Assembly: GCA_039621445.1 (NCBI GenBank)
Contig: CP154954.1
Coordinates: 2,666,001 to 2,730,000, forward strand
DNA: 64,000 nt
Direction: 5' to 3'
DNA from: Euglena gracilis
Lineage: Eukaryota
The notes below the pieces were generated by a model. The model saw only the letters and a list, made by a program, of their open reading frames with translations. It was not told the origin of the DNA and searched no databases. Below, in pieces: positions 31,609-62,920 of the stretch (position 1 is the stretch's first letter; each line of letters starts with the position of its first letter). The position numbers and the translations under genes are program-made.

Positions 31609-34600
31609 ATGACTGGCAGCAAGCACCCAAGGGACAGCCCAAACCCCAGCCCCTCCAAAAGAAGGAGAGAGGTGTGCCAAGGACATGACAGGCAACCCTT
31701 TTCAACAGCTTGCAAAACAAATTCACAAAAAACAAGTGTTTTTGCAGACCACGGATCCCGACCCAGAATTTTGTTTTTGGCCACAAATATCAGGGCAGGC
31801 GTTTGGCGGGTTGAACACAGTTTTTTTCAAAGGGAAAATTTTGATAAGTTTCAATTTTCTTTTGGTGGTGAAATCGTGGAGTGGGATGACACACGCGCGC
31901 GTGCGCGCGCACACACACGCACGCACACACACCCACACACACGCACGCACGCACGCACACACACACACACGCGCGCGCGCGCACACACACAAACAAACAC
32001 AAATACACTGGCTGATTGTGGAAAATTGGTGATTGATTTTTTTTGGTGAGTGCTGGAGACCAGTCGCCAGCGACCATTGGTGGCACCTCTGGCGACCCCA
32101 CTGGTGGTCGGGCCGACTAGTCGACCGACCACCAACAATATGACAGGTGCACATTTTTGCTGGCGATTGATTTTTGGACCCCCCAATTGAAAGTCCCTCA
32201 TTAAACCCCCCCACTTCTCATTGAGGGGGTGTTTGCCCCGTGTCCCCCGCGTCCCCCTGCGTCCCGCGTCCCAAACCACCCCTCGAGAAAGAAGGCCCAG
32301 GAGAGTCTCACCGTCGATCAGTGTCCAATTGTCAATTTTGGCAATTTGCCAAAATTTGCCAATTTTTTTTGGGCAAATTTTGGTATACCCCCTTCGAAGT
32401 GGCCGCTTTCTTTTGGCGGCAAAGGTCGCCAAATTGACCCCCCCCCCCAAAGAATCCCTCTCGCCGCTTTGGGGTCCCACGGCGCCCGGAGGGCGGCCAC
32501 TTTGATGGGGGAGACTACCCACATTTGGACCCATCCGGACCATTTCCGGGTTATTTGGATGATTGATTTTCCATCCGTTTTGCAGGTGTCTGGGCTGGAG
32601 TATTGGAGGCAGTACCTTGCTGAGCCACGGGCTGTGGCCAAGCTGCCTACAGACCTTCCAAGGCCAGACAAATTGCGTTCAAGCTTTTGTGTTCCCATCG
32701 GGACCAGGGATTTTTTTAAGTTTGGACCCCCAGGGGGGGGGAGGGGGAGTGGTAGGGGGGGAGGGGCCGCCGTACCCCCCTCCCCCCCCCCTGGGGGGGG
32801 GTCCCCCCGGAGGGGGGTGGGATATACGTTTCGGCGCCGCAGGCGCCGAAAAAATTCTATTTTTAGCACTTTTCGCGATTTTTCGGCCATTTTTTGTGGG
32901 TCCCCCGGACCCCCCTCCCCCCCCCCCCCCGGGGGGGCCCCCCCTCTTGGGGGTGGGTGGGTGGGGGGGTGCCCCCCCCACCCCCCCCGCCCCGGTCTTA
33001 AAAAAACCCCTGATTCGGGACATGCGTGCAGTTTAGGGAAGTTCCAAATGTGGGTCCACTGAAACAGTGTTTCTGATACGAAAACTGTGTCCAGAACGCC
33101 GGTTCGGGCGTGAAGCCGTGTTCCAGAACGCCGGTTCGGTTCGGTTCGGTTCGGGTTCCGAACCGGCGTTCTGGAACACGGCTTCACGCCCGAACCGGCG
33201 TTCTGGACACAGTTGTTGAAACCGTGGATTAGGGGCTCTGGCTTCACACCCGAATCGGCGTTCAAGGAATAAAGGCCAATTTCGCCCTAAATACCCAGTT
33301 TCTGAACATTTTTGGGCATTTTTGGGATCCTTTGGGCTCATGGCCATGTCGATCGGCCGATTGAAGTTTTCATCCGTCTGATGCCAGGTTACCCATCAAT
33401 CGAAAGGTTTTTTTTTCAGAATTACGATTTGGAAAATTTTTTTGGTTGGACCACCCCTAGGTTTTTTCAGAATCACGGTTGGGAAATTTTGGCTGGACCC
33501 CCCCCAGATTTTTTCAGATTTGCAATGCCGAATTTTCGGTTGGACCCCGCTGGTTTTTTTTCCAGAATTATGGTTCGGATTTGATCCCCCTTTTTTTTCA
33601 GAATTCCGGTTCAGAGATTTTGGCTGGGTTTCTTCACAAACACGGTTGAAAAAAAAATTGGCTGGAGCCCCCCCTAGGGTTTTTCAGAAGTACAATTGGG
33701 AAATTTTGGCTGGACCCCCGGGAATTTTTCAAAATTGTTGGGAAATTTTTCCCCCCCCCCCCCCCTAATTGACCCCCCCCCATGATTGCCACCCCCCCCC
33801 CCCCCGACCGAAAATTTTTTCAGCCGCTCGCGTCTTTTCCGCCTTGCTTTTGCTTTGTCAAATGTCTACCTTGAGTGTTTCAAGCTCCGGCATGTGTCTG
33901 GCATGCCGCTAAAATGAGTTATTTCCACGGACCAAGGGGTTTGTCAGGAGTCCCTTGTATTTTGCCTTGTCCGTTCGGACCCCCCCCATAATTGACACCC
34001 CCCCCATAATTGACACTACCTGGGGGGTTTGGAGGGTTTCGGGGGTGTCAATTATGGGGGGGGGTAATTACGGTTGGGAAATTTTGGCCCCCCCTGGGTG
34101 TTTTCAAAATTGGTTGGACCCTCCCCTGGGTTTTTCAGAATTATGGTTAAGAAATTTTAGCTGGACCCCTTGGGTTTTTTCAGAATTACGATTTTTGGAC
34201 CCTTTGCGCAAATTCCAAAATCCACTGTTCACCTGCCATGTTGCCCCTTGATCAATAACCCTTCTCAAGGGTTTTAGATGGCCTTAGATTTCAGCCCTGC
34301 TGCATGGTATTCTATTTCAGAAAATCCCCAGATTTGGCCAAATGGAAATTGTTCCACAAAATACCCCAATTTCTGGCCAAATACCAAGAAGTGCTCAGAT
34401 ATGATTGCCTCATGTCTACAAACCATTTTGGACACTCTTTGGCACTTTTCATTTTCGGTCCCCAGGACGCCGTTTTCCCGCCCGAACCGGCGTTCTGGAC
34501 ACCGGTTCGGCGCAGAAATTTCTGCGCCGAACCGGCGTCCAGAACGCCGGTTCGGGCGTGAAGCCAGAGCCCCAATACACGGTTTCAATGGGTTTGCTGG

Positions 34601-62600: not shown

Positions 62601-62920
62601 TTGTGTGGAGTGTTTTGTGCTTGTGTGTGTGTGTGTTGTGTGTGTGTGTGTGTTTTGTGTGTGTGTTGTTTGTGTTGTGTGTGTGTGTGTGTGTGTGTGT
62701 GTGTGTGTGTGTGTGTGTGTGTGTGTGTGTGTGTGTGTATGTTGGGGGTGTGCGTGCGCGTGTGTGTGGCTCCCAAATCTCAAATGTCAGCCCCATCCGT
62801 TCTCTGGTGGACGCTGCGGCTGGCCCCCTCCTCACGGCCGTCACACCGGTGCCCGTGGAAGGCGGGGTGCTCCTGCAGACCCCCGACAGAGGGGCCGGCT
62901 GCTTTGTGCGCGCCAGTGGC
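59615..62920 (+). CDS. Unknown protein, partial; supported exons 60499-60557, 60600-60646, 61021-61148, ~61775-61839, 61906-61971, 62055-62083, 62791-~62920
   Basis: In-frame joins give LTPGSVVDVGGVPQVCPLAF|DLHPGGDPRAIRTPP|HRPIIAG...RLFSK and LLLAGGDGSLLLGRIFD|ESARKQ...VPHHD|QSFPNLLSQG|PIRSLVDAAAGPLL. They use four hairpin introns plus GT-AG introns with matching phases. Confidence 0.5.
60650..61015. mobile_element. MITE that makes up a nonconventional intron (60647-61020)
   Basis: Termini CAGGCTGCT...AGAAGCCTG; flanks CCCACACC/GCCCCACC; internal motifs shared with other MITEs; removing the element plus 8 nt gives an open frame. Confidence 0.7.
62304..62767. repeat. (TC)n followed by degenerate (TG)n microsatellite inside GT-AG intron 62084-62790
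   Basis: Direct reading. Confidence 0.95.

Follow-up and report, generated by a model that had tools for sequence, protein, structure and literature searches.

Nonconventional introns of Euglena gracilis beside hAT-like miniature transposable elements, and one RNA-mapped intron that consists of an element plus one 8-bp repeat

Introduction

How introns are gained in eukaryotes, and how Euglena removes its nonconventional introns, are open questions on which a 64,000-nucleotide stretch of the Euglena gracilis genome bears (GenBank assembly GCA_039621445.1, contig CP154954.1, positions 2,666,001 to 2,730,000 of the forward strand; hereafter the window, numbered from its first letter). Two genes in the window are interrupted by introns that have no GT-AG borders and carry a short terminal helix, and MITEs, or miniature inverted-repeat transposable elements, lie beside and within them. 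A first-pass annotation, made from the letters alone, had proposed that splicing of such introns removes a MITE together with exactly one copy of its target duplication. Did these introns arise in this way? The evidence analysed here comes from the 64-kb window, from public RNA runs and from published work.

Nomura et al. (2025; PMC12501133) derived the code 5'-N3-CDG ... CH'G-N5-6/R (the slash marking the exon start) from 649,158 E. agilis junctions. Their knock-in experiments in an E. gracilis exon showed that the 5' spacer has to be 3 nt long and that a 3' spacer of 5 nt works best, and the cassettes were precisely removed from the foreign exon. A MITE origin was proposed from the inverted repeats by Milanowski et al. 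(2014; PMC3935182), when no transposable elements were known in euglenids. A 2024 review (PMC11282704) marks CAG/CTG at +4..6 / -8..-6 as 'TIR' (terminal inverted repeat) in the legend of its Fig. 3D, where repeats at the junctions carry the label 'TSD' (target-site duplication), and the discussion of PMC12501133 repeats the MITE suggestion without giving numbers there. Milanowski et al. (2016; PMC4770533) described a recently gained intron, gapC intron 4 of Euglena agilis ACOI 323, with eight-nucleotide direct repeats, which they read as a product of double-strand-break repair.

Results and Discussion

Intron 58557-58990 is an element plus one 8-bp repeat

We fixed 21 introns in two genes from RNA joints and three transcriptome proteins, and 18 of these are nonconventional (4 in gene 1 and 14 in gene 2; Table 1). 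Gene-2 junctions were taken from two contig runs (X1, X4) and two raw RNA-seq runs (X21, X24) aligned to 52900-62250; X21 and X24 are labelled RNA, and X1 and X4 are RNA by our guess only. The 14 joints define a spliced frame of 370 codons that is free of stops and aligns without gaps with two independent transcriptome proteins, EG_transcript_19518 and EG_transcript_16301. None of the 14 introns has GT-AG borders at any allowed placement. Gene-1 junctions are at the protein level, from mapping of EG_transcript_671 onto the DNA; the seven-intron model (3 GT-AG, 4 nonconventional) reproduces the first 284 residues of this protein with 1 mismatch.

Among the gene-2 introns, 58557-58990 consists of a 426-nt element and one copy of a direct repeat. 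The 8-mer GTGGAGAG occupies 58557-58564, at the 5' end of the intron, and recurs at 58991-58998, where the following exon begins (match 8/8). The joint 58556->58991 appears in all four runs, with 13 reads in X21, 4 in X24 and contigs from both X1 and X4, the 8 nt fitting on either side, and the transcriptome protein continues uninterrupted over it. The element itself (58565-58990) starts with CAT and ends with ATG, and these are paired within a 13-bp terminal helix that includes 3 G-U pairs; its minimum-energy fold likewise pairs the ends. Whole-element folds, both of this element and of the MITE at 48143-48539 described below, are of ordinary stability (z = 0.42 and -1.81, respectively), and the terminal pairing alone is informative. 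This intron is the 1 in 18 that equals an element plus exactly one target duplication, and three more have decayed matches of 6/8 or 7/8.

Splice geometry of the mapped introns

In 16 of the 18 nonconventional introns, an allowed placement exists that puts a fully paired triplet 3 nt in from the 5' cut and 5 nt in from the 3' cut. The sum of these outer nucleotides is well defined despite ambiguous junctions, because sliding shifts both cuts together. On the mapped junctions it concentrates at 7-8, as the first-pass annotation had anticipated: it is 8 in 16 introns, 7 in 32676-34617 (4+3, with CAA/TTG in a 10-bp terminal helix, CAAGCTTTTG/CAAAGGCTTG) and 10 in 53551-53840 (5+5, with CAG/CTG, 290 nt). 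The downstream exon begins with a purine in 15 of the 16 in-register introns, and the strict published code (CDG/CH'G) is satisfied by 8/18. The 3+5 geometry seen here is the published rule and not a discovery. In several introns the helix extends 1-2 bp past the triplet towards the cuts.

In all 16 in-register introns, cutting at distances of 3 nt (5' strand) and 5 nt (3' strand) from the helix would give the excised hairpin a 3' overhang of 2 nt, a pattern that might suggest cleavage by a double-strand-specific, RNase III-like enzyme; our literature search found no paper tying the positions of the cuts to enzymes of the RNase III type. Among the joints listed for 52900-62250, none runs from the end of an intron back to the start of the same intron.

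Thirteen hairpin introns had been listed from the sequence, nine with 8 outer nt and four with 7. Five are right when sliding is allowed, namely 32677-34618, 34890-34954 and 36527-37541, for which the gene-1 model fits EG_transcript_671, and 53927-54160 and 60647-61020, which have RNA joints; four of them belong to the group of nine and one (32677-34618) to the group of four. Most of the others did not survive mapping. The hairpins at 35001-35042, 56001-56075, 60558-60599 and 61840-61905 occur by chance within the real introns 34987-35948, 54215-56111, 59708-60617 and 61167-61920, respectively. An intron does exist at ~53553-53839, with true bounds 53551-53840 and 10 outer nt in place of 7; 56209-57276 resolved into a pair of introns, 56242-56951 and 56973-57276, that a 21-nt exon separates, keeping its 3' end at 57276; and 61972-62054 kept its 5' site at 61972, the intron ending at 62169. 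For the minus-strand candidate 47262-48602, within which the MITE 48143-48539 sits, the exon 47016-47261 has no protein match, a weak negative. Triplets of the CAx...xTG type were present at the positions given for 12 of the 13 stretches, 53927-54160 having TTC, not TTG, as its 3' triplet.

These false introns are expected, because short CAx...xTG hairpins are about as common here as in shuffled sequence. Units of 35-120 nt of the form CA[GAT]...[CTA]TG with a helix of at least 4 bp number 2450 in 31609-62920, whereas 10 shuffles average 2558, and those with a helix of at least 6 bp number 535 against 400. With chance hairpins this abundant, one that restores the reading frame can nearly always be found.

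hAT-like MITEs in the window

MITEs were sought as inverted repeats (at least 10/12) with flush direct repeats, and the matches were then curated. The earlier statement that many free MITEs have CAx...xTG-type ends and 8-bp duplications proved overstated: two are clean (29218-29974 and 48143-48539) and two to three are degraded (Table 1). The 7-bp repeat noted for 11332-11785 is indeed present and flush. The end sequences of the two clean elements match at 84-87%, and the end motif CAGGG..TT[AG]AG is common to three copies of the family, which lie at unrelated sites with unrelated flanking 8-mers. Ends of the hAT superfamily are of the YARNG type. Judged from duplication length and end motif only, the CAGGG...CCCTG MITEs appear hAT-like; they resemble hAT-superfamily MITEs in their 8-bp duplications, their short CAG-starting terminal inverted repeats, the lack of a long reading frame and their size of a few hundred bp. 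By eye, no long non-repetitive frame of transposase type was seen among the open reading frames (ORFs) of 1-31500, and no dedicated transposase search was made.

On paper, 29218-29974 and 48143-48539 fit the published splice code, the sixth base of the duplication being a purine. The left duplication ends in C (C/CAGGG, the slash marking the element border) in 3/5 CAGGG-starting elements (29217, 48142, 32704). The E. gracilis nonconventional-intron consensus, reported as CCAGG at +3..+7 and CCTG at -9..-6 (PMC11170887), resembles the C/CAGGG of these MITEs.

One further repeat-bounded element, 30379-31051 (673 bp, CAC...GTG ends), has a flush 10-bp direct repeat, TTCACCTTAC, and contains a 138-codon ORF of ordinary composition (30561-30977). 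A search of metagenomes with the MITE end pattern gave a single match, on a bacterial-looking contig, which we discarded as chance.

Origin of the introns

Under the published rule a short terminal helix joins the intron ends, the 5' cut falling 3 nt upstream of this helix and the 3' cut 5 nt downstream of it. A hAT-like MITE with CAG...CTG terminal inverted repeats and an 8-bp duplication would then be spliceable on insertion in an exon. Its inverted repeats would provide the helix, spacers of 3 nt and 5 nt would come from the two copies of the duplication, and cutting would take out the element and exactly one duplication copy, so that the original reading frame is regained. We infer that at least some nonconventional introns probably arose from such insertions, a judgement that leans only slightly beyond even; that free MITEs would themselves be spliced, and that the route would be general, is likewise inferred from the geometry and the elements described above.

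A remnant of the duplication is expected around the helices. In the 16 in-register introns, the 8 nt before and the 8 nt after the helix are identical at 61/128 positions, against 87/384 in flanking positions, and among 20 sliding windows -8..-1 ranks first (adjacent windows reach 59, 59 and 57); four introns score at least 6/8. Much of this signal is the known junction repeat, because most E. agilis introns, 84.4% in PMC12501133, are 'slidable'. When the contiguous junction repeat and its two forced mismatches were removed, identity was 21/61 inside the predicted 8-nt window and 82/374 outside it (p=0.027). Two GT-AG introns of gene 1 (37689-38430, 31670-32589) are also bordered by direct repeats of 6-7 nt, such as TCCACAG at 37689/38424, and junction repeats alone are therefore no mark of nonconventional or transposon-derived introns.

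Several results weigh against an insertion origin. The residual duplication signal, although in the predicted direction, is weak and comes from positions that are not independent. No family is shared between introns and free elements: in BLAST comparison of the terminal 40 nt of the introns with the free copies in the window, 0/18 were shared, and whole introns compared with the window gave low-complexity matches and one 39-nt match inside a nested element. The MITE copies that do lie in introns (32705-33012, 37020-37421 and one in 60646-61019) are nested passengers that stop short of the intron borders. In the raw inverted-repeat scan, direct repeats of lengths 6-10 numbered 12, 5, 6, 3 and 6, and length 8 does not stand out, noise being added by palindromes and tandem repeats, microsatellites included; eight dinucleotide shuffles gave 0-1 matches each at length 7 or more. 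A code-conforming CDG/CH'G triplet is missing in 10/18 introns, which have other paired triplets (CGA/TTG, TGG/CTA, TTG/CGA, CGT/ATG, TGA/TCA, CAT/ATG, CAC/GVG-type) or 7 or 10 outer nt, and the two introns with sums of 7 and 10 depart from the rule itself. Even the cleanest case has its difficulties: BLAST found no second copy of the element 58565-58990 in the 64-kb window, its inverted repeat is 9/13 when only Watson-Crick pairs are counted, and CAT/ATG is not among the triplets that were functional in the knock-in assay. Lastly, intron 53924-54157, discussed below, agrees less well with an 8-bp duplication than with an origin by break repair or duplication. The earlier claim that splicing removes an element plus one duplication is supported by the geometry, the co-resident MITEs and intron 58557-58990, and is left short by the missing shared family and the weak residual signal; the observation behind it is partly confirmed and its interpretation partly supported.

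In a broader form of the proposal, nonconventional splicing would be an excision system at the RNA level that matches integration of the hAT type, the spacers of 3 nt and 5 nt being two halves of the 8-bp duplication, and every exonic CAG...CTG MITE would be a seamless intron. We offer this tentatively, rating it somewhat below an even chance. If true, it would explain the ~70% nonconventional share of Euglena introns and why most are 'slidable', and a mode at 8 would be expected in the published sliding-distance data.

The most serious competing explanation is coincidence: the 3/5 rule would be a property of the splicing machinery, MITEs with hAT-type ends and duplications would be generic to any genome, junction repeats would have other causes, and most introns would never have been MITEs. 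The missing shared family, the ten introns without a conforming triplet, the weak residual signal with no peak at 8 in the raw scan, and short hairpins as frequent as in shuffles all agree with it. Against it stand the perfect 8-bp repeat lying exactly flush with the terminal helix in 58557-58990, the recent E. agilis intron with an 8-nt repeat (PMC4770533), and the first rank of -8..-1 among 20 windows, and we consider coincidence unlikely.

Repair of double-strand breaks with filler DNA would generate direct repeats of variable length without a transposase, and hairpin fillers would survive as spliceable ones. This was the proposal of the PMC4770533 authors for their 8-nt-repeat intron, and repeat lengths in the window do vary (0-4, 8 and 11, or 17 imperfect). 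Also in its favour is intron 53924-54157, a minisatellite between long repeats: the borders carry a direct repeat of 11 nt perfect or 17 nt imperfect (16/17), the CAA/TTC triplet is mispaired, and the interior is filled by an 11-nt minisatellite (53945-54129, unit GCGTGACTGGG, ~17 copies). Break repair, however, gives no reason for repeats to be always 8 nt long or to adjoin the end of an inverted repeat, and the window holds mobile-looking elements that have these end triplets together with 8-bp duplications, including three copies of one family at different 8-mers. As the source of these introns we regard it as distinctly unlikely.

A reversed direction, in which excised intron RNA (circles have been reported) is copied back into DNA and the MITE-like repeats are dispersed introns, is very improbable: circular excision products are cited in PMC11282704 and PMC12501133, and several MITE copies lie inside introns (the three nested ones named above), but reinserted intron copies would share the 3+5 spacer bases, whereas the three family copies have unrelated flanking 8-mers, and duplications of 8 bp lying flush with the ends of inverted repeats are the classical signature left by a DNA transposase.

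Relation to known systems

The introns of the window are members of the euglenid nonconventional class (PMC12501133; Milanowski et al., 2014, 2016; Gao et al., 2024) and show no essential difference from it. They share its non-GT-AG borders, the terminal helix triplet at +4..+6 / -8..-6, the exon purine, the frequent junction repeats and the organism, with 16/18 in register and 8/18 conforming to the strict code. The 8-nt junction repeats of E. agilis gapC intron 4 (PMC4770533) are like those of 58557-58990, although its authors favour break repair.

The idea of a MITE origin, with inverted repeats as terminal inverted repeats and junction repeats as target duplications, is the same as that of PMC3935182 and PMC11282704. 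It differs here in that those sources, in the text available to us, name no repeat family, duplication length or superfamily, whereas the window has actual MITEs with 8-bp duplications beside the introns and a spacer sum equal to the duplication length. The arithmetic 3+5 = 8 is correct and follows from the published rule; to it the window adds one clean example and co-resident MITEs of the right kind. Our literature search found no paper that equates N3+N5 with an 8-bp duplication, and supplementary sliding distances (PMC12501133 Fig. 1B, SI Fig. S3) and repeat lengths (PMC4770533 Table S3) may bear on the claim. It also found none that names a hAT-type MITE family, or MITEs with 8-bp duplications and these ends, in Euglena. 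New here are the hAT-like CAGGG...CCCTG MITEs with perfect 8-bp duplications and the RNA-verified intron 58557-58990. This is an increment that sharpens a known hypothesis, not a new system, and its support is concrete but thin.

The closest parallel is provided by the introners of Micromonas and other algae, in which, according to PMC11282704, a short DNA transposon inserts in an exon and is spliced out together with one copy of the duplication, seamlessly from the start. Introners use spliceosomal GT/GC-AG sites, part of which a 3-nt duplication supplies, and number thousands of nearly identical copies (PMC11282704). The introns of the window, in contrast, have a helix with measured spacers, nonconventional borders, an apparently non-spliceosomal machinery, an 8-bp duplication and no intron family within the window. 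If the spacer sum is the footprint of an 8-bp duplication, the question of origin becomes one of counting on existing data (649,158 E. agilis junctions and 28,337 E. gracilis introns), and the proposal could be checked with one construct in the published EgGSL2 knock-in assay. Euglena would then join the algal introners as a second case, different in mechanism, of a transposon whose insertion into an exon does no harm from the outset.

Genes and other features of the window

Table 1. Genes, introns and MITEs of the window. Gene-2 introns are nonconventional and are given at their leftmost placements.
Feature	Position	Strand	Description
Free MITE	29218-29974		757 bp, CAGGG...CCCTG ends, 13-bp perfect terminal inverted repeat, 8-bp duplication AGCGCAAC
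MITE, same family as 29218-29974	48143-48539		397 bp, CAG...CTG ends, perfect 8-bp duplication AGCATGGC; fold pairs ends
MITE, same family, nested in gene-1 intron 32676-34617	32705-33012		8-bp duplication broken by one inserted base, ATCGGGAC / ATTCGGGAC
MITE, same family, nested in gene-1 intron 36527-37541	37020-37421		CAGGG...CCCTG ends; in (GT)n run, duplication length unreadable
MITE-like element	11332-11785		CAG...TTG ends, flush 7-bp repeat GTACCAT
Unrelated MITE nested in 29218-29974	29498-29727		GGTAC...GTACC ends, 25-bp perfect terminal inverted repeat, 8-bp duplication GAAAAAAT
Gene 1	31609-38484	+	8 exons, 7 introns; residues 1-284 of EG_transcript_671 (5' part, NRPS-like)
Gene 1, GT-AG intron	~31672-32585	+	Protein-level model
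Gene 1, nonconventional intron	32676-34617	+	1942 nt, slides by 1; protein-level junction
Gene 1, nonconventional intron	34890-34954	+	65 nt, CAG/CTG at 3+5, exon starts with purine; protein-level
Gene 1, nonconventional intron	34987-35948	+	962 nt, slides by 3, CAC/GTG helix in 3+5 register; protein-level
Gene 1, GT-AG intron	~36005-36395	+	Protein-level model
Gene 1, nonconventional intron	36527-37541	+	1015 nt, CAG/CTG at 3+5; nested MITE 37020-37421; protein-level
Gene 1, GT-AG intron	~37696-38430	+	Protein-level model
Gene 2	53449-62195	+	15 exons, 14 nonconventional introns; eukprot EG_transcript_19518, EG_transcript_16301
Gene 2, intron 1	53551-53840	+	RNA joint and protein
Gene 2, intron 2	53924-54157	+	RNA joint and protein
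Gene 2, intron 3	54215-56111	+	RNA joint and protein
Gene 2, intron 4	56242-56951	+	RNA joint and protein
Gene 2, intron 5	56973-57276	+	RNA joint and protein
Gene 2, intron 6	57361-57673	+	RNA joint and protein
Gene 2, intron 7	57718-58147	+	RNA joint and protein
Gene 2, intron 8	58192-58530	+	RNA joint and protein
Gene 2, intron 9	58557-58990	+	RNA joint and protein; 426-nt element 58565-58990 plus one 8-bp direct-repeat copy 58557-58564
Gene 2, intron 10	59102-59549	+	RNA joint and protein
Gene 2, intron 11	59708-60617	+	RNA joint and protein
Gene 2, intron 12	60646-61019	+	RNA joint and protein
Gene 2, intron 13	61167-61920	+	RNA joint and protein
Gene 2, intron 14	61972-62169	+	RNA joint and protein

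The eukprot entry EG_transcript_671 is an E. gracilis non-ribosomal peptide synthetase (NRPS)-like protein of 1295 residues, and one exon of gene 1 is 100% identical to it. For residues 285-1295, no run of 6-residue words was found in the remaining 25 kb (38485-64000), where the other plus-strand gene lies; this part could be absent from the window because the assembly is broken here, because the gene copy is truncated or because an intron is very long. Intron 32676-34617 is enlarged by two nested repeats, 32705-33012 and 33070-34588, and would measure ~100 nt without both. The second of these belongs to a 1.2-1.5 kb repeat with internal palindromes (pieces 82-88% identical), which also occurs at 8981-10146 between genes.

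The product of gene 2 matched no Pfam family. Its exon 56952-56972 is a micro-exon of 21 nt (7 codons) flanked by two nonconventional introns, and the joints on both sides are present in all four runs and in a transcriptome protein. An alternative 3' junction was seen at 60646-61098, where the X4 contig joins 60647->61098 (450 nt skipped) and X1 and one X21 read join 60645->61020 (374 nt). Over the minisatellite at 53945-54129, the depth of RNA contigs is 20-40x that of the exons, which indicates that this repeat is widespread in transcripts, and loose read ends nearby point to other loci with the same sequence just before the minisatellite. Outside the two genes, a long compound microsatellite (ATAC/GTAT-type) followed by a GC-rich tandem array of the 'CCGGCCCGG' type extends over 48700-50400, and the microsatellite at 62290-62790 is a CA-rich run near 62.3-62.8 kb.

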